IMG/VR virus record: IMGVR_UViG_3300025684_000015 | Location: 33,887 to 97,886 of that record | Source: a virus | DNA length: 64,000 nt | Reading direction: 5' to 3' (one strand) | Part shown: piece by piece, positions 26,285 through 39,429 of the stretch | Position numbering within the stretch: the stretch's first letter is position 1 | Layout: the number at the start of each line of letters is the position of its first letter | Made by a program: the position numbers and the translations under genes | Notes under the pieces: generated by a model | The model's database searches: none | The model's input: the letters and a program-made list of their open reading frames with translations, nothing else | What the model was told of the DNA's origin: nothing

Positions 26285-26956
26285 TTAAATATTCTCCACA
26301 TATTCATCAATTAGAGGGAAGATTTTAGCAATTGCACAAGCACATTCCCTTGCAATTTCCATATGTTCTTTTTGAGTACCATTGGCAGATCTTAGCTCAA
26401 TGTAATGAATCCAAGATCGAAGGGTACCATTCACATATAACCTAGACTTAGTCAATCCTTCAGGTAGTACAGCACGAGCTTGTTCTTTTGCAATACCATG
26501 ATCTAAAGCCCACGCATAAACTTCTTGCACCATCCAAAGTACTCTACGTTGATGCCGATCCCATTCCCTCTGAAGTTCTTCACTATCAGTTTCAATAGAG
26601 TTCTGACGATTCTTTGTATCTTGCAATCGAGCTTCTCTAATCTCAAACTCATCAGTTAAATCACGAACATCAGCATATCGTTGAGAAAACTCTTGAAATG
26701 AAAATGATCTATGCCTTAATAGTTGTCTTGCAATGTCTCGAGTTGTTTCAACTTCTATGCAAGCAGATACCATTTCGAAGGGTGACCAGTGTTTGTGCTT
26801 TGCGAGATAGGCAAGTAACCTTTCTGACGTCGCAGAAGAAATTTGGTTCGAGGGGTTGGATACACGGGCGCAATACGCCACGAGTTCTTGGATATCATTA
26901 CCGACATATAGTTCTCCTTCTGGGGTTTGCGAATATGAGATTAATCGTGCTTTCAT
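26285..26956 (-). CDS. thyX: FAD-dependent thymidylate synthase
   Basis: RHRSFSFQEFSQRY ThyX motif; HWSPFE; KEQAR.VLP. Confidence 0.95.
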   Translation of the reverse strand: MKARLISYSQTPEGELYVGNDIQELVAYCARVSNPSNQISSATSERLLAYLAKHKHWSPFEMVSACIEVETTRDIARQLLRHRSFSFQEFSQRYADVRDLTDEFEIREARLQDTKNRQNSIETDSEELQREWDRHQRRVLWMVQEVYAWALDHGIAKEQARAVLPEGLTKSRLYVNGTLRSWIHYIELRSANGTQKEHMEIARECACAIAKIFPLIDEYVENI

Positions 26957-28535: not shown

Positions 28536-28848
28536 AAGCTTTCACAAAGCCTTCTTCAAGGCCTTTATCAATAATATCTAATAATACCATACCAGCGAAG
28601 TTTTGTAAACCATTATTTTCAACTGATAGGTTTTCATCGGGTGTATCTACAATTTGAAAGTCAAAAGTTAATGCCTCTTCTTTATCGTTATATCCAATTT
28701 CACCAAAGACAATAGTAGTCTCCACGAAGTCACCAGACTCAAAGCGTACTGCCCAAGCATCTGGATGTTCTTCGTGGTGTACTAATTTATAGTCTTTATT
28801 TTCACTCAATGATATCATCATCAATCTCAATAATCTTATTGCCACCAA
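28501..28848 (-). CDS. Hypothetical protein at the T4 gp40 position
   Basis: Between uvsX and gp41; homology to gp40 not evident; start uncertain. Confidence 0.55.
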   Translation of the reverse strand: MVAIRLLRLMMISLSENKDYKLVHHEEHPDAWAVRFESGDFVETTIVFGEIGYNDKEEALTFDFQIVDTPDENLSVENNGLQNFAGMVLLDIIDKGLEEGFVKAYDRENGDELTN

Positions 28849-29848
28849 TTTTATAACACTGAGTTAAATATTCTTTAAAATCGGTTTCTTCAAAAATAGA
28901 TGTCCAGAATTCGGGGTCAAGAGTTTGTTTTTCTCGTACCTTTTGATCTGAAATTTCTCCAGTTTCTCTATCAACTTTGGCGTACCAGCCATTAGAAGGT
29001 TTGGCAATATAGTTACCTGTAAGTGCAATTTCACGAAGACCAGAGAACTTTTGTACGCCACCTTCCCAAGATACTGAAATAGGAATCTTTGATTTTTCTT
29101 TGACATAACGAGATTTCTCAACGTTAATTACAAAGTCATAACCAGTAATTTCAGTTCCAGTCTTATTTTGTCGGCGACCAAGAATCCAGATATTATCGGC
29201 TGAGTAATAGATACCAGTACCACCAGAAACAATAGCCTTAGGGAACAATCCAATCTCTTGATAAGTATGGTTAACCGCAATCAATGGGATATTCTTCATT
29301 GCTAGATATGGTGTACACATACGGAACAAACCTTTTAATGCTTTTGCACGAGACATATCAGCAACTGATTTCTCATTCAGTGCATCTTCAAGTTCTTTCT
29401 TTGAAGCTAGGTTACCAACAGAGTCAATAACAATACAAACTCGATCGTTATAATCTAAAGACTCTAATTGATGTACAATATCAAATTTAAGTTCTTCTAC
29501 GTTTGTAATAGGTGTGTGCAATACCCGAGAAGTATCGATCTCGAATTGTTCAAAGTATTGTTGTGGTGAACCAAACTCTGAATCATAAAACAATAATACT
29601 GCTTCAGGATATTTTTTAAGATATGCCGAAGCCATAATCAATGCAAACGAAGTTTTAAAGTGTTTTGATGGACCGGCAAGAACTGTTAGTCCTGGAGCTA
29701 GACCACCATCAGCACTGCCAGATAAAGCTACGTTAATCATTGGTACATCTGTTGGGATCATATCTTTATCGGTAAAGAATTTAGATTCAGAAAGAACTTC
29801 AGTGTGTTTGACTCTGGAATTCTTTTTTAGTTTATCCATAATGGACAT
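28802..29848 (-). CDS. uvsX: RecA-like recombinase UvsX
   Basis: AGPSKHFKT, YDSEFG, DSVGNLASKKE, ADMSRAK. Confidence 0.97.
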   Translation of the reverse strand: MSIMDKLKKNSRVKHTEVLSESKFFTDKDMIPTDVPMINVALSGSADGGLAPGLTVLAGPSKHFKTSFALIMASAYLKKYPEAVLLFYDSEFGSPQQYFEQFEIDTSRVLHTPITNVEELKFDIVHQLESLDYNDRVCIVIDSVGNLASKKELEDALNEKSVADMSRAKALKGLFRMCTPYLAMKNIPLIAVNHTYQEIGLFPKAIVSGGTGIYYSADNIWILGRRQNKTGTEITGYDFVINVEKSRYVKEKSKIPISVSWEGGVQKFSGLREIALTGNYIAKPSNGWYAKVDRETGEISDQKVREKQTLDPEFWTSIFEETDFKEYLTQCYKIGGNKIIEIDDDIIE

Positions 29849-29882: not shown

Positions 29883-29915
29883 ATATTATACCATAAATTC
29901 ATCTAATTGTAAACC
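29883..29915 (-). promoter_or_regulatory. Sigma70-type promoter upstream of uvsX
   Basis: TTTACA...TGGTATAAT overlapping the 3' end of the MTase gene. Confidence 0.6.
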
Positions 29916-31091
29916 ATTATTTTCATATTGTAGTGTTTGACTTTTATTATCTTGAATAAGAAAATTAGTATCAAGCATTTTATTATGAGATCTACCCTCA
30001 ATAAAAGACTTTACTTCCATAGCCATATCTTTTGCTGTAGAAACTGGTACGTTTTGGCAAATGTGATTTAAGTTTGATAAACCACCATGAAGCTGAAAAT
30101 CATTAGGCAATTTCATAATTGCCAAACATTCACGAATAGTTAGGTATCGATCTTCATCAGGATGAGTTAATGACGTTGGCATATGGCCAACAAAAGCACC
30201 AATATAATCCTTAGGGATCTCGGTATTCTTTCTCATGATATTACCACCAGCCGCAAGTTTATCGTACATACGAATGCACTTGGCTTCTTCACGCTCATAG
30301 TTATGAGCTTTCATCCATTTACCTACATCTAAATATGAGATCTTATGTGCCTCAATATAGTCTAATGGATTCGTGGTTTTTTCAATCTTATTTGCAAATT
30401 CCGCATGAGTAATACCTCCTTCTATTTCTTGAAGGACGTACTTATAAAACGGATTATCAGACGGCACACGAGAATTTGTGAGGATTTGGCTCATTGGATC
30501 ATTAGGATCCCGTTTCACGGAACGTATCGTATCCTCGATTTTTTCGTGGTCCCTCTTTATATATTCAAAAACAGGGACTTTATCGCCCTTCCAGAAAAAA
30601 TAAAATGTTCTATCTCTTACTTGCGAAAGGCCATGAAGAAGCGACTTAGTTTTGAAGATTGAGAAGGAATATCCAAATTCAGTTCCAATTGCTCTGAGTT
30701 TTGAGACGATCGGCGATCCCATTTTGCTTGCCAAGCGCGGTGCATTTTCCCCCCAAAAAACTGTAGGTTTAATATGCTCAAGCACAAGACGTGATGTATG
30801 TAACATCCAGTCATTTGTAGGGCTATCAGAAGCGGAAGAAGGACTAAGGCTGCTAAGGCCAGCGCAAGGGCAAACGGTGTTAACAACATCAACGCCATGA
30901 GCGCTACCCAGCTTTGAAGTATCATTGTCAAGGAGTGTGTATGGTACTGTTCCTCCGTAGTATTCGAGGAGGTGTTTGTCGTTGTTTGAAAAAACTTCAT
31001 AGCTTAAAATATACTCCGGCTTTGTTCCAAATGCTTGTTGCATTGCTATAGTTTCACCGCCAATAAGTGGTACTATACTCGCATAATTCAT
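29886..31091 (-). CDS. DNA cytosine-C5 methyltransferase-like protein (atypical motif I)
   Basis: PC (VCPCAGLS), EN (GENAP), QVRDR, RYLTIREC motifs; motif I is VPLIGG rather than FxGxGG. Confidence 0.75.
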   Translation of the reverse strand: MNYASIVPLIGGETIAMQQAFGTKPEYILSYEVFSNNDKHLLEYYGGTVPYTLLDNDTSKLGSAHGVDVVNTVCPCAGLSSLSPSSASDSPTNDWMLHTSRLVLEHIKPTVFWGENAPRLASKMGSPIVSKLRAIGTEFGYSFSIFKTKSLLHGLSQVRDRTFYFFWKGDKVPVFEYIKRDHEKIEDTIRSVKRDPNDPMSQILTNSRVPSDNPFYKYVLQEIEGGITHAEFANKIEKTTNPLDYIEAHKISYLDVGKWMKAHNYEREEAKCIRMYDKLAAGGNIMRKNTEIPKDYIGAFVGHMPTSLTHPDEDRYLTIRECLAIMKLPNDFQLHGGLSNLNHICQNVPVSTAKDMAMEVKSFIEGRSHNKMLDTNFLIQDNKSQTLQYENNGLQLDEFMV

Positions 31092-31092
31092 A

Positions 31093-31905
31093 TTAAAAAA
31101 ATTCCTCTAAGCTATTTGTTTGACTTGACAAATAAGCTTTTTTATGTTGAATAGTAGTAGCTAATTTAATCTGACCTTTCCATGGACCAGATGGAACTAA
31201 CTTTTCTTTTACCTTTATATATTCAGGCCATAAAGAAGCTAATTGGCGTTGAGCTTCGTTATGTACTTCAAGTGTGCGCCATGTAGAACAACCACCTTCA
31301 GCATTTGTTTCTGAACATGTTACCATATACTTAGCACTAATTCTATTTTTAAACCCACGAGTTAGAAGTTGTAAATTTACATCAAAATCTTCTGCTGCAG
31401 CAACGCGATTCCATTCAATATCAGTTGGCACATTTGGACCGTCATAAAAAACATTAGTCATAATGCGCTGGCATTCACGAATTGGCCATTGATTTACATC
31501 TGGGATAACCCATGCAGGTAAGAATCCACCATAGATAATTCCTTCATCCATCCAATCATTTATTAGATTAAATGCATCATCAAAGTCTTGACGAGTAAAT
31601 TTACGACTTAGCCATTTGGTTCCTTCACCCGGATTTGGTTCTTTTACAACAAAGTCTAAGTCATCATCTAATACCATATGACGAGTATTTTTAAATTCGT
31701 TAAAGATCCATTCTCGAGTTGGAGCAATCCTATTAATTTCTTCTGGAAGCTTTAAAACTTTATTGCCATAGATCTCAACCATTTCATCAAATTCATGAGC
31801 TTGTACGACAAAGAATGTTTTATTTTGATATTCTTCTGGTAGGTTATTATAGGTAATTTGTTTATTGACTCTACCAAGAGTTGGGATAATAAAGCAATCG
31901 ATCAT
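31093..31905 (-). CDS. GT-A fold glycosyltransferase (TET/JBP-associated-like, putative DNA-modifying)
   Basis: IIPTLGR, LDDDL, EDFD..LQLL..G, GGCS.WR. Confidence 0.75.
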   Translation of the reverse strand: MIDCFIIPTLGRVNKQITYNNLPEEYQNKTFFVVQAHEFDEMVEIYGNKVLKLPEEINRIAPTREWIFNEFKNTRHMVLDDDLDFVVKEPNPGEGTKWLSRKFTRQDFDDAFNLINDWMDEGIIYGGFLPAWVIPDVNQWPIRECQRIMTNVFYDGPNVPTDIEWNRVAAAEDFDVNLQLLTRGFKNRISAKYMVTCSETNAEGGCSTWRTLEVHNEAQRQLASLWPEYIKVKEKLVPSGPWKGQIKLATTIQHKKAYLSSQTNSLEEFF

Positions 31906-31923
31906 AATATAATTCTTTCAAAA

Positions 31924-31953
31924 TGGGTTGAGGAGCGTAGAATCTCCTCAACC
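31924..31953. terminator. GC-rich intergenic stem-loop
   Basis: GGGTTGAGGAG...CTCCTCAACCC inverted repeat. Confidence 0.5.
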
Positions 31954-31961
31954 CGGTTCCC

Positions 31962-32090
31962 TTAGTTGACGTTTTCAGATTGACCAGCTGATTTTGTGGC
32001 CCAAGCTAAATCAATTTCTAATTGTTTAACGCGTTGCGACAGCTGCTGTAATTGTAAAAATAAATCTTCATTAGTTGTTTTTGTTTCCAT
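31962..32090 (-). CDS. Small coiled-coil protein (42 aa)
   Basis: Start reassigned to METKTT (AAAGGTG RBS). Confidence 0.45.
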   Translation of the reverse strand: METKTTNEDLFLQLQQLSQRVKQLEIDLAWATKSAGQSENVN

Positions 32091-32115
32091 GATGGGTAAC
32101 ACCTTTGTTTCTTTT

Positions 32116-32562
32116 TCAAATGAATTCGTATTTGATACCAGTCTCATCAAACATCTCCTTAGTTTTGCGCCAAGATACTTCCCAAACTGGTGGTATTTCC
32201 ATGTTGCGCATAACAACACGTTTTACACCAACTTGAATAATACCCTTTGCGCATTCTGAACATACTGGTAGTCCAGTGACATATAATGTAGCATTATCTA
32301 AAGATACTCCATTATATCCTGCATTATAAATTACGTTCATTTCAGCGTGAACTACCAGCTCGTATTTCCTTTCGCGATCATTATAACGTTCGTCGTTATC
32401 ATCAATCCCTCGAGGAAAACCATTAAAGCCTTGGGCTAATACTTGACCTTTGGCTCCTACCGCCACAGCACCAATTTTGCGTGACGGGTCTTTCGACCAA
32501 CTTGCTACTTCTTCAGCAAGTTTTAAATATCTTTGATCCCACTTATCTAATCCCATATACAA
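32116..32562 (-). CDS. cd: dCMP deaminase
   Basis: SKDPS.KIGAV, HAEMN, PVCSECAK. Confidence 0.93.
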   Translation of the reverse strand: MYMGLDKWDQRYLKLAEEVASWSKDPSRKIGAVAVGAKGQVLAQGFNGFPRGIDDNDERYNDRERKYELVVHAEMNVIYNAGYNGVSLDNATLYVTGLPVCSECAKGIIQVGVKRVVMRNMEIPPVWEVSWRKTKEMFDETGIKYEFI

Positions 32563-32563
32563 A

Positions 32564-33286
32564 TCACTCTTTCCAGTTAGGATCTACTAATGTAAAGTGG
32601 CGAGAATACACGTGGAGATTTTGTACTTGCCAAATAATACTACCAGCTGTAGCTTGTAGATCAGTACTTAGTGAATTAAAATCATCTACTAAATGATCCA
32701 ATACATACTTTTGCCAAGCATAATCATTTTTATAACCAAACACAACATCATTTGATCTCATTTGGACAACAGCGTGTAATTCATATTCAAAGTTTTTTTC
32801 AACATCTCCAACTTCTGGTCTTAGATAATATGAAACAGTGTTTGTACAAATAAAGTCATTTTTATCATGTTCTTTATATTCTTCCCAAATTGACGGGCGA
32901 GTATAGACCATAGTTGCTCGACGAGTAGTTTCTTGATTTGCTAACAATTCGTCAAGAACTTGTCCATACTGGTTATAATATTTATCAGAATAAATTAGAT
33001 AACCATAGTTAGAATTTGTTTCACCATGTTTATTTGCGCTGTGTTTCCATGCAGCAGGTACTCCATTTGGATACTGGATATCATTTACGTTAGTGCTCAT
33101 AGACTCATACCAATCAATTTCTGATTTAATGTATGCATCATTAGGAGTACCAAAAATATATGGTTGATCAGCTTCAAAACTAGCACCAATGATTTCAATC
33201 ATTTTACAACCGGTGCGATCAATTTGAAACTTTTCATTATCTAAAGCGTAAATAAAAGTATCTCTAATATCTTCAGTTTTTAGCAT
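32564..33286 (-). CDS. gp42: dCMP hydroxymethylase (T4 gp42-type)
   Basis: IEIIGASF.AD, NSNYG, DFICTNTV, MRSNDVVFGYKNDYAWQKYVL, LHVYSRHF closely follow T4 gp42 as I recall it, including the cytosine-specifying Asp. Confidence 0.9.
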   Translation of the reverse strand: MLKTEDIRDTFIYALDNEKFQIDRTGCKMIEIIGASFEADQPYIFGTPNDAYIKSEIDWYESMSTNVNDIQYPNGVPAAWKHSANKHGETNSNYGYLIYSDKYYNQYGQVLDELLANQETTRRATMVYTRPSIWEEYKEHDKNDFICTNTVSYYLRPEVGDVEKNFEYELHAVVQMRSNDVVFGYKNDYAWQKYVLDHLVDDFNSLSTDLQATAGSIIWQVQNLHVYSRHFTLVDPNWKE

Positions 33287-33686
33287 TGGTTACTCTTTCC
33301 CTCAATCCACTTGTTGAAAATCTATGATCACGCTTATTAAAATATAGTATGATATCCCGTTGTTTACAAATATCTCTACCAGTGAAATCTGTATCTTTAT
33401 ATTCTACACCAAGAATGCGAATTTGTACATCCCTCATTTGCAAAATATCTTCAAGATCTGATTCGTGTAAATATGGGATAACTTCATCCACATATTTTAC
33501 TGCTTCGAGTTGAGTATATCTTTCCACTATCGTTTGAACGGGTGGATTTTTTTCTTTACGATCAATACTCGGATCAATTTGTAAACATGCAATTAGATAG
33601 TCGCATTGTTGCTTTGCTTCACGTAACATTTCTACATGACCAGCATGAAGCAAATCAAACGTCGACGCTGTTATTCCCACTCTCAT
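33273..33686 (-). CDS. Glycerol-3-phosphate cytidylyltransferase-like (TagD family)
   Basis: TFDLLHAGH (HxGH), ER...L.AVKYVDEV, R...FSTS. Confidence 0.85.
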   Translation of the reverse strand: MRVGITASTFDLLHAGHVEMLREAKQQCDYLIACLQIDPSIDRKEKNPPVQTIVERYTQLEAVKYVDEVIPYLHESDLEDILQMRDVQIRILGVEYKDTDFTGRDICKQRDIILYFNKRDHRFSTSGLRERVTNAKN

Positions 33687-34032
33687 CAGAATTACTCACC
33701 TTGATTGTTGCAGTTGCAGATTTTGGTTTATTAAACATATTATGATTAGCATTTTGACCTTCCATCTTACCACGAATATATGATACAGCAAAGGAACAAT
33801 AATTAATCATATCTTTATATGTGTCTTCAAGAGATTCAAATTGTGGATCACCACCAGCTTCAAGAAGCGATTGAGCACGAATAAGTTTTTGTGAAATCAT
33901 ATCATGGATAGTATCTACGCCACGACGATAATGCATTGCTTGAACAATATTCGAATTCTCATTTTGATAATCTTGAGATTTTTTAGTTTGCAGCTCTGCA
34001 CATTCTTGCAAAACTTTAACAGATTCCTTCAT
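33655..34032 (-). CDS. Nucleotide-modification-associated helical domain (Nmad/DUF1599-like)
   Basis: KK.QDY...K..R...ESLEDT..DMINY. Confidence 0.65.
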   Translation of the reverse strand: MKESVKVLQECAELQTKKSQDYQNENSNIVQAMHYRRGVDTIHDMISQKLIRAQSLLEAGGDPQFESLEDTYKDMINYCSFAVSYIRGKMEGQNANHNMFNKPKSATATIKVSNSDESGNNSVDV

Positions 34033-34630
34033 CTACAGACTCCCATGTTGGAAAAATATTAATACGCTTTTCAGTCCATTCACCTAATACAGTAATTATA
34101 CCAGGTTTATCAGCTCTTGTAAAGGATAAAGTGCTGCGCGCACCACCAGTATCCTTCCATTTTTGTGTGGTTAAAGAAAGATCTACAATAGAGACATGCA
34201 TACCAATAATACGCATTTTATCATCGAATTGAAATCTTTTTAATAGATGGACATCAACTTTCTTACCACCATTATTATTACCGACCCACTGACGGTTTGA
34301 TGGATCTTGTGAACAAGCATTCTTATCTTCAATAGGAACACCTTTGTAGACATGATCATAGCCATCAGCCATTTCTTCGTAAATATCTATACCAATTTCT
34401 TTCAATGAATCGATGAATAGAGTATTCAATGGAATATTTACTTGCTTACTGCGTTCTGCAGATCTTTGGCTAGAATCTACTTCATCAAGAACTTCGTATA
34501 GTTCTTTACCATACCAAGCTTTTGCAGCTGGTAGTTTTTCTTGATTCCATCGAGCAGCTACTAGTGGAGCAACTTGTTGGATGCCTTCAATAAGATCTGT
34601 ATAAAAACCTGACGTATTCATTATTACCAC
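34016..34630 (-). CDS. Putative restriction-endonuclease-fold protein
   Basis: GYD...IEDK resembling PD-(D/E)xK. Confidence 0.4.
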   Translation of the reverse strand: MVIMNTSGFYTDLIEGIQQVAPLVAARWNQEKLPAAKAWYGKELYEVLDEVDSSQRSAERSKQVNIPLNTLFIDSLKEIGIDIYEEMADGYDHVYKGVPIEDKNACSQDPSNRQWVGNNNGGKKVDVHLLKRFQFDDKMRIIGMHVSIVDLSLTTQKWKDTGGARSTLSFTRADKPGIITVLGEWTEKRINIFPTWESVDEGIC

Positions 34631-34833
34631 TCCTTATGATTTCCAGCAGCTTCGTTTTCTTCAAAGCCTTTAGTATAAGCTACAATTTCAGCAGCTGACA
34701 TGTCGCGACATTCAACCGGCTGACCATTATATGTTCCATCTTTATAGTAGTGCGGGTTATATGGGCGGCGATAATAACTATCAGCCATTCCACGATCATA
34801 AGGATAACCATGACGAGTATCAACAACATTCAT
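34624..34833 (-). CDS. Hypothetical early protein
   Basis: HG.PYDRG.ADSYY.R...PHY phage motif; start approximate. Confidence 0.65.
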   Translation of the reverse strand: MNVVDTRHGYPYDRGMADSYYRRPYNPHYYKDGTYNGQPVECRDMSAAEIVAYTKGFEENEAAGNHKEW

Positions 34834-34846
34834 AATATGATCTCCC

Positions 34847-35020
34847 TTAAAACTTGATTGAAGCTAAACCAGCATCGATTGGATCAATAATATATCCAAG
34901 ATCTTTTGCAACTTTATACACTACAGCTTCAGTAGGAAGATCTGAAGATAGACTCTGACAATAAGCAACAATCTCTTGCCAATTTGTATGTGGGATTTCA
35001 CGAGCTTTAAATTCAATCAT
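34847..35020 (-). CDS. Hypothetical early protein
   Basis: Start reassigned to MIEFK behind GAGGAG. Confidence 0.55.
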   Translation of the reverse strand: MIEFKAREIPHTNWQEIVAYCQSLSSDLPTEAVVYKVAKDLGYIIDPIDAGLASIKF

Positions 35021-35037
35021 GGTAGACTCCTCATTAC

Positions 35038-35124
35038 CTTTTTTCATTTTATAAGTATATTATACCATGAAAAGTCGGGTTTGTAAACAAAAAAATGCAC
35101 TTAATTTCAAAAAAAGTGCATTTA
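35038..35124 (-). promoter_or_regulatory. Early promoter/stem-loop repeat, copy 5
   Basis: AAATGCACTT...AAGTGCATTT hairpin, TTTACA-17-TATAAT, conserved leader. Confidence 0.85.
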
Positions 35125-35343
35125 ATTATCATTATCTGGAGAGACTATAAACGAATTTTTTAACTCATTTATATCTACCATAGTTCTATTGCCAGCTTCG
35201 TCTTCAACAGCAACTTGAAATGTTTCACCTTCAATGGCGCATAAAGAATCAAGAAGATCTATTAGTTCTCTAGTACTATCATCGATCTTTTTATCTTCTT
35301 TTTTCTTCTGATAAAATTCAAAATCGTATATATTACTCATCAC
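35122..35343 (-). CDS. Hypothetical protein
   Basis: Coupled to primase-like gene. Confidence 0.55.
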   Translation of the reverse strand: MMSNIYDFEFYQKKKEDKKIDDSTRELIDLLDSLCAIEGETFQVAVEDEAGNRTMVDINELKNSFIVSPDNDN

Positions 35344-36281
35344 ATATTTTTATACACATATTCAATGGCACGATCAGCTTCTTTGTCCATTGGTCTGTTT
35401 TTATACCAATTACCAGTTTCTTCATCAAATTGGCGACAGAGCTGAGATACTTCATCAGACGTAATAGCATATCTCTTATCAATCGCATGCCCAGCAACTG
35501 CTACCATAATCTGGTACATTTTATGATACCAACCAGTTCTACTTATGCTAGAATATTCTGCAGCTAGATTTTTTGGCCAGAATGGGCAATCATGGTAAGA
35601 TGACCAAGTAAAACTAGCATCTAATTTAGCTTTACGATGCTCAACAATTTGTTGTTGCATAGACTCTGGTAATCTATCAAAGAAATTATTCAATGAAGAT
35701 TTTTCTGGCATAGGATGTTTAAAGATTAATTCATCAGGGTCAATAGGTTCACGAGCATCACTATTGAAAATAAAATTGTTAGCACCAGCGTAGTTCGCAG
35801 GGATGTAATACATCCGTGATAAATCTTTAGTTTGTCTATCTCCGAGATTTCCGAGCTCTGTTTGTAGTGCATACCAAAATTTTTTGATTCGATCTCCTCG
35901 CACAGCTTTCGTAAGTGGAAAGACAAGACGGAACTTCGGAAAATCAATGGTGCTGCTAGCAGTACTATAGCAAATAAACCGAAAATTAGGAAATCTACTG
36001 TATAACTCATCTTTTAAATCTCCATCGCATACAAATTCATCGACATCAACTGCACACCAGCCACTCCACTCTAATACATTATCATTTGCTCGGGTAGTCC
36101 CCACCACATAGGTGGCTGGAGACATAAGTTCTGCATCTTTTTTAGTTGCTAATTTTCTTTCTGAAAGATCAAATAAGACTCTTTCAAATGAATCAAAATC
36201 TTTTAAGTCAACCCGTTTTTCAGTTTTATTATCAAAAATGCTATTAAAGAGCGTTAGTGATATTGCCGATGTTGTCGACAT
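35340..36281 (-). CDS. Archaeo-eukaryotic-primase (PrimPol)-like protein
   Basis: AVDVD (DxD), YSTAS...PKFRLVFPL, KDLSRMYY; helical C-terminal domain. Confidence 0.7.
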   Translation of the reverse strand: MSTTSAISLTLFNSIFDNKTEKRVDLKDFDSFERVLFDLSERKLATKKDAELMSPATYVVGTTRANDNVLEWSGWCAVDVDEFVCDGDLKDELYSRFPNFRFICYSTASSTIDFPKFRLVFPLTKAVRGDRIKKFWYALQTELGNLGDRQTKDLSRMYYIPANYAGANNFIFNSDAREPIDPDELIFKHPMPEKSSLNNFFDRLPESMQQQIVEHRKAKLDASFTWSSYHDCPFWPKNLAAEYSSISRTGWYHKMYQIMVAVAGHAIDKRYAITSDEVSQLCRQFDEETGNWYKNRPMDKEADRAIEYVYKNM

Positions 36282-36666
36282 GCGTAGGTGCCTCCCATCC
36301 TTCAGGCTTAATCAAATCAGGCAATCCCAAAGGATTTGGTCTTTCTTTCTTTTCGCCTGGAGTCTTAGCCATATTTGCAGTATGGACTCTATTCCAAGCA
36401 CGATAAGAATTCACACCAAAAGCATCTAGTGTGCCAATAGCAACAACGCATAGATCAATAAGACCATCAACAATTTCATCTGGATCTTTATCTTCATTTA
36501 CTGCTTTTTGAGTTTCTGCCAATTCTTCTTCAAGAAAGGCCATACGAAATTTCAAAAATTTAGACATTAGTTCTTTATTATCTAAATTCTTATCTACCCA
36601 ATCATGCACACCAAACTTAACATGCATATCATTAATATCTTTTACCCAATCATTACTCATCTTCAC
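36244..36666 (-). CDS. MazG-like/PRA-PH NTP pyrophosphohydrolase (candidate dCTPase)
   Basis: EEELAE, EIVDGLID, VH.ANMAK, KPEGW..P. Confidence 0.85.
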   Translation of the reverse strand: MKMSNDWVKDINDMHVKFGVHDWVDKNLDNKELMSKFLKFRMAFLEEELAETQKAVNEDKDPDEIVDGLIDLCVVAIGTLDAFGVNSYRAWNRVHTANMAKTPGEKKERPNPLGLPDLIKPEGWEAPTHVDNIGNITNAL

Positions 36667-36886
36667 CTCTTTTAAGCGGAGTTACATTATTAGTATATTG
36701 TACATCATCTTGATCGAAAAGTAAACAACTATTTTCAGGAACCTGATAACCCAAACTCTTTAAGAAATCAGTGTACGCTTCAAGCATTTCATCTAATGTT
36801 GCTTCATCTTTTAATTCAAAAGTAATTTTTCTTTGAGCAGTATATTCTTCATGTAGTTCTGGGCATTCCCATGTAAAAGTAATCAT
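36653..36886 (-). CDS. Hypothetical protein
   Basis: TLDEMLE.Y.DFLKSLGY pattern. Confidence 0.6.
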   Translation of the reverse strand: MITFTWECPELHEEYTAQRKITFELKDEATLDEMLEAYTDFLKSLGYQVPENSCLLFDQDDVQYTNNVTPLKRGEDE

Positions 36887-39372
36887 ACAAAAAAGTCCTC
36901 TAAGCTTGCGACTGGTTCTGGTGTCCAGCCAACAGCATCCAATATTGGTATTAATGGTTCTAGAAAAGATTTTGAAAACTGCAAATCATAATCTACATAC
37001 TTATTTAAATGTAATTCAGATGGTAAAACATCTGGAAAAGCAATTACATTTTCTTGAATAGCATTAGGCATTTTCATATATGTGAAATAAATCCTACTAC
37101 CATTTGTTATCAATTCATATTTATTCTTTAGTTTATTGTCTTTGATTTGTTTATTATATAAGATCGATCCACGCACATGAATAGGCGTACCTTTCTTATA
37201 TAGTTTTTCCCGATCTGCCCATTCGGTAATATTAGAAACAGATCGAGGAAATGCGACTTTTTCAGGAGATAAGCTATTAAATGTATTTTTAAAGTCTCGT
37301 ATAAAAGCTTGAGTATCTTCTTCACCACCTGAAATAATAACTTTGAAGATATCTTTGAATTTATTACGACAGACTTCTGGAGTAGAGGATTTAATAGCTT
37401 CAATACCCATGATCTTAAGTTTAGGCTCAGCGTATTGTACACCTTCATTATTGTGTACATTTAGAATGTAGCGCTTCTTTGCTGTCCATATACCACGGTC
37501 AGCGATAACTTCTCTACCCATTTCCATACGAGGTTTATGGCAATTCATCTTATTAAATAGCGCGTCATATGCAACAGATATTTTAGGCTCAAAGAATTCT
37601 TTACAAATCTTATCAAGAAATTGCACTGGATTTTTTGGATTAAAGTTTTTGACAAGTGAACTAAAGTTAACATATAGTGAATCTGTATCAATTGCAATTA
37701 CATAATCAATACCTTCAGTCTTAAGTACTTCATTCATTGCTTTATTTACAGCGATCTCAGCCCATTGAATAGCCAATTGCCCTGTTAATGTTACACCTTC
37801 AGCAAGACGAATATCAAAGTACTTAAACCATTGATTGCCTAGAGCTCCATAAAGAGAGTTCATAAGAATTTTAATAGCCATTTGCTGATTATTTAATTTA
37901 TTGATCTCTTTTTCTAAAGCATTAGTTTTATTTTTTTGATAGTCTGATTCAGCTGCCAACATCATATTCTTAATAGCACGACGTTCGTCATAATAGTCTT
38001 CAATGATTCGAGGAATAACACCATCTTTGTCTTTACGATAAGTAGATCCATTAGCAGCAACTGTGCCTTCATGAATAACTTTTTCTGATTTTAAATAGTA
38101 CTCTACACCTGAGTTTTCTGATTGATCAATAAGTGTTTCGGGTGACATATTCCACTGAACAATAATGTTCGGGTATAGACTATTTAAATCAAAAGAAACA
38201 ACCCAGTCATGCGCACCCACTTGTGGCTCTTTTACATATCCACCAGCAAACTTTGTTTTACCAGTGTCTGGTTTATTTAAAGGTGGAATTGTTTTTTCTT
38301 GTTGAAGTTTACGATAAATGATTGATTCCCAAATAGCGGTGGTACCCATTGTATCACCGTAATTGACACCACCCTTATATGCCATAGTCATAGCAAGAGT
38401 AATCAAACCCATTTTATCTTCAAAGCGCTCAATTAACTCAACGTCTTTCATATTATAATCAATATAACGTTGAAAATCTTCTTTATATAGATTTTTTAGT
38501 GAACCAGATTGTTCGTACGAAAGTTTTTCATCACCAAGTACAACATTAGCAATATGGTTTAGTTTATAAGATTCTTGAGCACCATAAGAATAACCAAACT
38601 TTTGAAAGAGTTCTAGATAATCTAGTTGACTAATACCCTTAATGTCATACGTATCTTCAGCTTTACCACGACGAGTAACTTCTCTATAGTCAACTAAACC
38701 CCATGGTGAAAACCTTTTAATAGCTCCAGGACCTAAAATTTTAGCTGTACGATTAATTAGATATGGAACATCGAAAAAGCGAACATTCCAACCAGTAATC
38801 ACATCTGGGCATACCGATTCACTAGCCCAAAAGTCAAGAAACTTTGTAAGCAGACTAACTTCATCGCGACATCGATAATAAGCAACTGGTTGAATAAGAG
38901 ATTTTTCTCTATCAAAATCACCATATGCCCATACACGATATACATTATCTTTACTGGATTTATAGGTAATAGAAAGAATACGTTGAGAAGCTTCATTTGG
39001 ATGTGGAAACCCATCTTCATATTCTGTTTCAATATCAAATGTACCTACATCAATAAGCTCGCGCTTAAATTCAATTTCGCGTGGGAACTTTTGAGTAATA
39101 TATTGCTGCAAGTAATTTTTGTTACCAAAGATATATCGGCCTGCAACTTGTTCATTCATTTGAAGCCATTCTTTAGCTTCACGCATACTATCAAGTTCAA
39201 TAGGCGCAACTGGCCGATCATTTAATGTTGACCAGCCAGTTTCTTTTTGGGACTGCACATAAAATACTGGTTTAAAATCGTTATCGCGCTTATAGATTTT
39301 TTTACCATCTGAACTATAACCACGATATAATATTGAATTACCATAACGAACTACGGACGTATAAAAAGACAT
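36883..39372 (-). CDS. gp43: Family B DNA polymerase (T4 gp43)
   Basis: FDIET exonuclease, SFDLNSLYP, KILMNSLYG, DTDS, KKRY; start reassigned to MSFYT. Confidence 0.98.
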   Translation of the reverse strand: MSFYTSVVRYGNSILYRGYSSDGKKIYKRDNDFKPVFYVQSQKETGWSTLNDRPVAPIELDSMREAKEWLQMNEQVAGRYIFGNKNYLQQYITQKFPREIEFKRELIDVGTFDIETEYEDGFPHPNEASQRILSITYKSSKDNVYRVWAYGDFDREKSLIQPVAYYRCRDEVSLLTKFLDFWASESVCPDVITGWNVRFFDVPYLINRTAKILGPGAIKRFSPWGLVDYREVTRRGKAEDTYDIKGISQLDYLELFQKFGYSYGAQESYKLNHIANVVLGDEKLSYEQSGSLKNLYKEDFQRYIDYNMKDVELIERFEDKMGLITLAMTMAYKGGVNYGDTMGTTAIWESIIYRKLQQEKTIPPLNKPDTGKTKFAGGYVKEPQVGAHDWVVSFDLNSLYPNIIVQWNMSPETLIDQSENSGVEYYLKSEKVIHEGTVAANGSTYRKDKDGVIPRIIEDYYDERRAIKNMMLAAESDYQKNKTNALEKEINKLNNQQMAIKILMNSLYGALGNQWFKYFDIRLAEGVTLTGQLAIQWAEIAVNKAMNEVLKTEGIDYVIAIDTDSLYVNFSSLVKNFNPKNPVQFLDKICKEFFEPKISVAYDALFNKMNCHKPRMEMGREVIADRGIWTAKKRYILNVHNNEGVQYAEPKLKIMGIEAIKSSTPEVCRNKFKDIFKVIISGGEEDTQAFIRDFKNTFNSLSPEKVAFPRSVSNITEWADREKLYKKGTPIHVRGSILYNKQIKDNKLKNKYELITNGSRIYFTYMKMPNAIQENVIAFPDVLPSELHLNKYVDYDLQFSKSFLEPLIPILDAVGWTPEPVASLEDFFV

Positions 39373-39394
39373 ACTTTCTCCATCACAATCAATA

Positions 39395-39429
39395 AGTATA
39401 TTATACACAAGTTTACAGCAAATGTAAAC
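39395..39429 (-). promoter_or_regulatory. Early-type promoter upstream of gp43
   Basis: TTTACA-17-TATAAT-ATACTTAT, same core as repeats but without hairpin. Confidence 0.7.

Follow-up and report, generated by a model that had tools for sequence, protein, structure and literature searches.

The IMG/VR virus record IMGVR_UViG_3300025684_000015 is a contig of 97,886 bp, judged 57% complete, and we analyzed the gene cluster found at positions 29886 to 36666 of its last 64,000 nucleotides (the window). The cluster occupies the gene 42/beta-gt slot of a marine T4-like phage, and we favor, with some confidence, the reading that it specifies a T4-type route to modified cytosine in which a lone glycosyltransferase of the TAGT family glycosylates 5-hydroxymethylcytosine (hmC). 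As judged from the encoded proteins, the product of the pathway would most likely be glycosyl-hmC. The original prediction had gone further, proposing that a dedicated cytidine diphosphate (CDP)-polyol-type donor enzyme places a non-glucose group on hmC and so makes a new DNA base. All the genes that it named were recovered on the minus strand and in the order it gave, within that span except for ThyX, and an hmC pathway with a post-replicative transferase is borne out. Nevertheless, a new base made through a CDP-polyol donor is not supported, the CDP-polyol idea itself being weakly supported, and nothing in the present evidence points to a non-glucose group on hmC, though one is possible. The phage is predicted to be an uncultured marine T4-like myophage, Kyanoviridae-like or related to that family; its polymerase is nearest to that of the Kyanoviridae phage C48C1 (54% identity), followed by those of cyanomyoviruses (47%).

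The central enzyme of the cluster, a thymidylate synthase (TS) homolog, is encoded at positions 32564 to 33286 (minus strand, as are all cluster and flanking genes described below). It matched the structures of T4 deoxycytidine monophosphate (dCMP) hydroxymethylase (1b49, 1b5d and 1b5e) with an E value of 9e-69 over residues 4 to 239, and is 54% identical to T4 gp42 and 21% identical to RB69 gp48, in agreement with its earlier assignment as a gp42-type hydroxymethylase. When the window protein and 34 relatives were aligned with T4 gp42 and RB69 gp48, Cys148, Asp145, Asp171 (the E. coli D169 position) and Asp179 proved to be retained in the window protein and invariant in all 35 family proteins (window plus 34); these include the catalytic Cys (T4 C148) and the dCMP-specifying Asp (E. 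coli N177 position, T4 D179). RB69-type TS homologs make 5-hydroxy-dCMP; the residue aligned with D169 of E. coli ThyA is Asn in these enzymes and Asp in true hydroxymethylases (PMC13326640). At this diagnostic position the window protein reads SND, as does T4, and Asp is found in all 35 proteins, whereas RB69 gp48 has Asn. The signature marks the TS homolog as a predicted true 5-hydroxymethyl-dCMP (hm-dCMP) synthase, and since the active site and the Asp signature are shared with gp42, the base made is expected to be 5-hydroxymethylcytosine. We also considered an RB69-type 5-hydroxy-dCMP synthase, with a sugar ether-linked straight to C5. The dCMP-specifying Asp is common to the two enzyme types, as is an acidic residue where the E. 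coli enzyme has L143, and their clusters occupy the same genomic slot, but the Asp/Asn diagnostic, on which this reading was rejected, the much higher identity to T4 gp42 and the lack of arabinose-5-phosphate isomerase, kinase or HAD genes make it extremely improbable. The window protein also has a 10-residue insertion (PEVGDVEKNF) past the catalytic Cys region, which is absent in T4 gp42 and in the relatives shown. A literature search on marine myovirus hydroxymethylases found nothing.

The genes expected to feed this enzyme are also present. A dCMP deaminase, the analogue of T4 cd, is encoded at 32116 to 32562 (PF00383, 75 bits; phrog_174, 157 bits) and follows the hydroxymethylase in 40 related loci. 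The MazG-like all-alpha NTP pyrophosphohydrolase (36244 to 36666; PF01503, 38 bits; phrog_671) is a candidate dCTPase/dUTPase, with metal motifs EEELAE and VDGLIDL kept in 26 relatives and a weak match in the PDB to DR2231. Its gene lies beside that of the primase, an arrangement much like that in T4, where dam alone separates genes 56 and 61. The Nmad1/DUF1599 protein (33655 to 34032; PF07659, 29 bits against a cut-off of 25) is a core partner of the hydroxymethylase, being present in 31 loci, including the minimal module MazG-Nmad1-hydroxymethylase-TAGT of L114-116. Its AlphaFold2 (AF2) model is a small helical bundle with conserved acidic residues and a predicted local distance difference test (pLDDT) value of 80; Foldseek gave weak rows only (AF_0060 at E 1.4, iMazG lower), and a VIA-wide fold search returned generic helical hairpins with Z <7. 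Nmad1 and TAGT were reportedly both defined by Iyer et al. in 2013, and a search of the literature on Nmad1/DUF1599 gave nothing useful. Supply of dTMP by ThyX, as had been proposed, is in keeping with a flavin-dependent thymidylate synthase gene at 26285 to 26956 (PF02511, 141 bits).

The transferase of the cluster (31093 to 31905) is a TAGT-family GT-A glycosyltransferase (PF20691, 72.2 bits against a threshold of 27.5; phrog_842, 144 bits). Its motifs LDDDLDF and AEDFD, kept in 28 relatives, are the published GT-A DDD...EDF motifs, so the original call of a GT-A enzyme unlike the GT-B enzymes of T4 holds. It is the only recognized DNA glycosyltransferase on the contig, where family searches cover 97.9 kb, about 57% of the genome, a limit that applies to every absence on the contig given below. 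Lone TAGTs are common, and the literature calls their role undefined. One nucleotide beyond the TAGT gene lies the last gene of the cluster, for a C5-cytosine-methyltransferase-like enzyme (29886 to 31091; PF00145, 63 bits). The protein keeps its catalytic cysteine, and motifs PCAG (IV), ENA (VI), QVRDR (QxRxR, VIII) and RYLTIRE and QNVPV (IX, X) are kept in 32 sequences; motif I is degenerate (PLIGG instead of FxGxG), and the match to TIGR00675 (dcm) reaches 29.9 bits against a cut-off of 100.65.

Related loci were drawn from IMG/VR separately through three genes, giving 80 loci via the small nucleotidyltransferase of the cluster, 34 via the TAGT and 80 of 349 via the methyltransferase-like gene; 41 hydroxymethylase-bearing loci are a subset of the first two samples. 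Their general order is polymerase, MazG, primase, variable small genes, (Nmad1), (nucleotidyltransferase), hydroxymethylase, deaminase, a cassette, (C5-methyltransferase-like gene) and UvsX, with genes in parentheses not always present. The TAGT directly follows the deaminase, or a short variable open reading frame (ORF) after it, in about 25 loci. The methyltransferase-like gene has 349 relatives in IMG/VR; UvsX is the next gene in 78 of the 80 loci sampled, and the hydroxymethylase lies upstream in 26 of the 27 with enough sequence, whatever the cassette. Because the same order recurs in the 41 loci and the hydroxymethylase in 26/27 of the methyltransferase-selected loci, the arrangement of the cluster is not accidental.

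In the T4-type route that we favor, the MazG-like pyrophosphatase, and perhaps Nmad1, would return dCTP to dCMP, which the gp42-type enzyme would convert to hm-dCMP, and the deaminase would turn some of the dCMP into dUMP to supply ThyX. A kinase would raise hm-dCMP to the triphosphate, and the phage polymerase would then incorporate hm-dCTP. After replication, the lone TAGT would add a sugar to hmC, the donor being most likely a hexose from a host uridine diphosphate (UDP)-sugar. On the simplest guess, the C5-methyltransferase-like enzyme would methylate cytosines that escape replacement.

Several observations weigh against this route. Neither a gp1-type dNMP kinase (PF21448) nor a thymidylate-kinase-type enzyme (PF02223) was matched on the contig, which leaves the step from hm-dCMP to hm-dCTP with no assigned gene; PF21448 was also absent from five related records (those behind L100, L089, L026, L011 and L109), up to 71% complete. 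Profile comparison detected no homology between the MazG-like protein and T4 gp56, and Nmad1 likewise appears unrelated to gp56 (and to the MazG-like family), with probabilities <1%. The alpha- and beta-glucosyltransferases of the first sugar (PF11440, PF09198) gave no contig match, in searches whose controls gave no match, and in T2/T6 the TAGT acts second, adding glucose to a base that already carries one (PMC13216743). Moreover, a conserved and, from its motifs, apparently active C5-methyltransferase makes little sense alongside full cytosine replacement. TET/JBP dioxygenases (PF12851) had no match on the contig, and the control genomes gave no match either; a literature search on clusters combining a hydroxymethylase with a C5-methyltransferase found nothing.

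Relatives of the locus differ mainly in what follows the core of MazG, Nmad1, hydroxymethylase and deaminase, and at least five interchangeable cassettes were found at this one place. The first combines a GT-B enzyme like the T4 alpha-glucosyltransferase (AGT-type) with an epimerase, often together with a UDP-glucose dehydrogenase; the second has a related 340-aa protein, a UDP-galactopyranose mutase (GLF) and an epimerase; and the third, the type of the window, is a TAGT alone. The fourth consists of a 412-aa protein of no assigned function, two small proteins and a protein of 366 aa in which NTP_transferase (PF00483) is fused to a HAD phosphatase (L182:3883-6989, and also L171, L188, L192, L196, L197 and L205). 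This fusion would be a phage-made donor enzyme for nucleoside diphosphate (NDP)-sugars, of another fold than the nucleotidyltransferase of the window. The fifth, placed between the deaminase and the methyltransferase-like gene (L132:3188-7004, also L174 and L186), comprises four genes. Two encode proteins resembling myo-inositol-1-phosphate synthase (PF01658, 32 bits) and a HAD/PNK phosphatase; the others encode a protein with the helical domain of 5-hmdU DNA kinase (PF18723, 37 bits) and a 344-aa protein of no assigned function. This gene set hints that in these loci a kinase activates hmC, which would then be substituted, possibly by a polyol, rather than glycosylated. In C48C1, the equivalent slot from primase to UvsX contains a sugar epimerase and a UDP-glucose dehydrogenase. 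The prospects of finding new bases are better with the uronic-acid-type, galactofuranose-type and kinase/inositol-type cassettes of the relatives than with the one in the window.

The proposal of a CDP-polyol donor concerns the 137-aa HIGH-motif nucleotidyltransferase (CTP_transf_like) encoded at 33273 to 33686 (PF01467, 50 bits). Its top NCBIfam match was TIGR02199 (RfaE domain II, heptose-1-phosphate adenylyltransferase) at 67.4 bits, where the equivalog cut-off is 181.5, nearly tied with TIGR01518 (TagD) at 65.7 bits, where it is 165.4, each score being about 100 bits under its cut-off. The best matches in the PDB were the ethanolamine-phosphate (ECT) and glycerol-3-phosphate (TagD) cytidylyltransferases, followed more weakly by an RfaE-like protein. 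The protein is a member of phrog_7878, a very large clade known mostly from metagenomes, and the exact protein is also encoded on a contig of 138,724 bp. Many cultured phages, among them phages of Vibrio, Acinetobacter, Roseobacter, Caulobacter, Synechococcus and Streptomyces, have homologs, which are annotated variously as TagD or HldE.

If the enzyme were of TagD type, it would make CDP-glycerol or another CDP-polyol, and glycerol-phosphate or a polyol on hmC would be a new base. The structural matches agree with this, as do the cytidylyltransferase-family signatures of the N-terminal half (LHAGH, a KxKNPPV segment and KYVDEVI). In addition, glycerol-3-phosphate as a substrate demands no further phage gene, and the inositol-1-phosphate-synthase-like and hmdU-DNA-kinase-like genes of L132, L174 and L186 make polyol chemistry in the clade conceivable. 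However, the TagD score is tied with that of RfaE-II and below its cut-off, and the RTEGISTT site reads RDHRFSTS, with only xSTS kept. Transferases of the TagF/TagB (PF04464) and LicD (PF04991) families were not found on the contig, nor were those of GT9 (PF01075); the TAGT is itself a sugar-transferring GT-A enzyme; and loci with the inositol-type cassette lack the nucleotidyltransferase. With its weak linkage to the pathway in relatives, described below, a CDP-polyol product is very unlikely, and the dedicated donor enzyme of the original prediction is not supported.

The distribution of the nucleotidyltransferase was evaluated in the related loci. In 20 of the 41 loci it directly precedes the hydroxymethylase gene, a figure biased by the fact that half of them were chosen through the nucleotidyltransferase itself. 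In the samples chosen otherwise, it lies within the primase-hydroxymethylase interval in 5/17 TAGT-selected loci that cover the whole interval and in 5/27 methyltransferase-selected loci, so that it is largely unlinked in relatives, an outcome that the original prediction had itself named as counting against it. TAGTs 81% identical to that of the window have no nucleotidyltransferase nearby (L093, L094), and the gene lies about 9 kb from the hydroxymethylase in G004 and about 23 kb from it in the 114-kb record G006, where it adjoins a gp47 homolog at what is, by synteny with C48C1, the gp55-gp47 interval. Among the nucleotidyltransferase-selected loci, 64 have a copy 71 to 80% identical and no hydroxymethylase within 8 kb; in the pooled set this holds for 66 of 89 nucleotidyltransferase-bearing loci. 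Copies of the same identity are also found between tail, neck or sheath genes and the small terminase. The gene accompanies three types of cassette (AGT-type, GLF and TAGT). This distribution argues against a dedicated role, and the most economical reading is that the nucleotidyltransferase is a mobile accessory gene of marine phages and not the dedicated donor enzyme of the hmC pathway.

The neighbors of the gene suggest what it makes. In a jumbo-like lineage with an ordinary ThyA, the nucleotidyltransferase adjoins genes for a cupin isomerase, a phosphomannomutase, a UDP-glucose dehydrogenase and an epimerase, and a cupin and a phosphomannomutase stand beside it in several hydroxymethylase loci too. 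These sugar-phosphate genes point to an NDP-sugar and not to CDP-glycerol, and the enzyme probably makes an NDP-activated sugar that tops up the NDP-sugar pool. In that lineage, which also has a distant PolB (L059:6955-7662 with its neighbors; L056-L082), the genes run FAD/NAD oxidoreductase, cupin, nucleotidyltransferase (74% identical), eukaryotic-type phosphomannomutase and epimerase; this run looks like a compact sugar-activation pathway on an unusual fold. In one group of loci, a 194-aa neighbor was considered as a partner of the nucleotidyltransferase; it is probably not one, as C48C1 has the late sigma factor gp55 there, judged by position and size only.

Two further destinations of such a product were weighed. 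In the first, the nucleotidyltransferase would be unrelated to DNA, a mobile auxiliary metabolic gene for envelope or virion glycans or for a cofactor pool, inserted here by chance. Its 71-80%-identical copies at the gp55-gp47 interval, between neck/sheath genes and the small terminase, and in the jumbo-like phage with a normal ThyA are consistent with this, as are the homologs in phages of the six bacterial genera named above. The contig moreover has a separate glycan cluster, with two GT25 genes, a pyruvyl transferase and a GT8-like gene. Nevertheless, the gene overlaps the start of the hydroxymethylase gene by 14 nt and is retained at this exact spot in 20 loci, and we regard a role wholly apart from DNA as possible, though on balance doubtful. 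The glycan-type cluster itself (L003:5501-13095) lies about 21 to 28 kb before the window on the same contig, and its pyruvyl transferase is a polysaccharide pyruvyl transferase; a methyltransferase and several proteins of 225 to 275 aa are also encoded there, and the GT8-like match is weak. It could be another user of NDP-sugars.

In the second, the enzyme would make a phage-specific NDP-sugar, such as ADP-heptose, NDP-mannose or another NDP-hexose, for the TAGT, which would yield a non-glucose glycosyl-hmC. A DNA destination is possible because there is a precedent for heptosylation: when contig 53 was reconstituted, a HAD/APH enzyme, a cytidylyltransferase and a glycosyltransferase gave heptosyl-5hmC (bioRxiv 2023.12.21.572611). 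The overlap with the hydroxymethylase gene and the position directly upstream of it in 20/41 loci agree with this, as do the top match to rfaE_dom_II and the close homologs in cupin-phosphomannomutase-dehydrogenase-epimerase contexts, and the nucleotidyltransferase is the sole donor-type gene in the window's cassette. Against it stand the 81%-identical TAGTs that occur without the gene, its low frequency in the samples not chosen through it, its distance of 9 to 23 kb in G004 and G006, and the three cassette types that host it, two of which have UDP-sugar enzymes of their own. In addition, no cupin, phosphomannomutase (PF03332) or HAD/kinase partner was found on the contig. We therefore consider this route unlikely, and less so a destination apart from DNA.

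The cluster also contains a gene for a PD-(D/E)XK restriction-endonuclease-like protein (34016 to 34630, probable ATG start 34621; 201-204 aa), which is not conserved across related loci. It has 36 distant relatives, and D92, E101 and K103 are invariant among 35 sequences. Its AF2 model (pLDDT 93) gave NhoI, Eco15I-N, NaeI, EcoRV and DpnI as top Foldseek matches, with E values of about 2e-3, probabilities of 0.97-1.0 and low TM values of 0.35-0.48; these matches are restriction endonucleases, several of them modification-dependent, and the Atlas offers a ScaI-like lead. The C5-methyltransferase-like enzyme could have a non-canonical job: it might, for example, use hmC itself as a substrate, or tag host DNA that lacks modification as a target of this nearby nuclease. 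Jointly, a TAGT fed by the phage nucleotidyltransferase that puts an undescribed group on hmC, together with such a non-canonical job of the methyltransferase-like enzyme on hmC DNA, seems quite improbable.

The T-even hmC pathway shares with the window the slot between polymerase and uvsX (the order in T4 is 43-imm-42-bgt-uvsX-40-41), an identical gp42-type active-site signature, a dCMP deaminase and, in T2/T6, a PF20691 glycosyltransferase. In contrast, the TAGT of the window stands alone, with no GT-B alpha- or beta-glucosyltransferase on the contig; a MazG-like protein and Nmad1 occur in place of a recognizable gp56, and ThyX in place of td; there is no match to a gp1-type kinase; and the window further encodes a C5-methyltransferase-like enzyme, a small nucleotidyltransferase and a restriction-endonuclease-like protein. 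In the metavirome clusters of Pyle et al. (bioRxiv 2023.12.21.572611), GT-A enzymes with DDD...EDF beside TS homologs had already been counted in metagenomes, a C5-methyltransferase likewise adjoins a glycosyltransferase, and a donor enzyme of the cytidylyltransferase fold has a precedent. Their tested pathways obtain 5hmC from 5mC through a TET-type oxygenase, whereas the window has a gp42-type enzyme and no detected TET; it also lacks a HAD/APH partner, and its methyltransferase has no obvious substrate. The arabinosyl-5-hydroxycytosine clusters of RB69 and DLP3 (Lee et al., NAR 2026, PMC13326640) occupy the same slot, show cassette diversity among relatives and likewise combine a TS homolog, phage-made NDP-sugar genes and transferases; the window enzyme, however, has the 5hm signature (Asp) and theirs the 5ho signature (Asn), and the donor-making genes differ in fold. 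Finally, TagD and HldC/RfaE domain II have the fold, size and HxGH motif of the window nucleotidyltransferase, which nevertheless scores about 100 bits under both cut-offs and has no cognate transferase on the contig.

In order of transcription, the genes of the cluster are those for the MazG-like protein, a gp61-type primase, three small ORFs, the 204-aa PD-(D/E)XK protein, Nmad1, the CTP_transf_like protein, the TS homolog, the deaminase, the TAGT and the C5-methyltransferase-like enzyme. The slot is bounded upstream by a gp43-type family B DNA polymerase (36883 to 39408; PF00136, PF03104; phrog_262, 1012 bits) and downstream by UvsX (28802 to 29848; PF21134, PF00154; phrog_97, 300 bits), the downstream flank also containing ThyX and a gp41-type helicase. 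The primase (35340 to 36281; phrog_9765, 150 bits), whose position is kept in relatives, the three small ORFs and the PD-(D/E)XK gene all lie within the span and were missing from the original list of genes. The small ORFs (73, 66 and 69 aa; 34624 to 35343) have no family matches; this segment is variable in relatives, and the window's copies are unique or nearly so. Packing is tight, as Nmad1 and the nucleotidyltransferase overlap by 32 nt, in addition to the 14-nt overlap and the 1-nt gap described above. Between deaminase and TAGT there is a gap of 210 nt (31906 to 32115), where relatives place assorted ORFs of 65 to 126 aa; an 85-aa frame (31962 to 32219) overlaps the 3' end of the deaminase gene and has weak counterparts in L099 and L117 only.

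A sigma70-like site, TTTACA-17-TGnTATAAT, is present at 35087 to 35059 on the minus strand. On the coding strand, three strong sites of the sigma70-like kind are identical to one another; the promoter scan as a whole gave a count equal to chance. The late promoter TATAAATA was looked for within 29.5-37 kb and none was found; its absence inside the cluster, together with the sigma70-like sites upstream, is consistent with early expression. In L100-L109, a conserved run of genes downstream of the methyltransferase-like gene specifies DUF6267 (365 bits), a protein of 518-715 aa, DUF5824/DUF6321 and, lastly, a ferritin-like protein. The large proteins there (518-907 aa, the 907-aa frame being in L100) were considered as equivalents of the small nucleotidyltransferase, but their CTP_transf/HIGH_NTase matches were threshold-level only and were not counted.

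Overall, GT-A enzymes beside TS homologs were already known, and the cluster of the window is a T4-type hmC pathway with a freely exchanged transferase cassette. T4-style cytosine replacement would be common among the uncultured T4-like phages of the sea that are related to cyanophages. Two gaps stand out against the textbook pathway, namely the gp1-type kinase, and a C5-methyltransferase where no cytosine should remain. Since hmC-modified DNA resists restriction enzymes and many library preparations, marine viromics would be biased as a result. If the joint reading were true, an abundant ocean phage lineage would carry an undescribed hmC adduct. The slot between deaminase and UvsX appears to be a hot spot for new chemistry in these phages, and the loci described here give concrete gene sets with which that chemistry may be approached.

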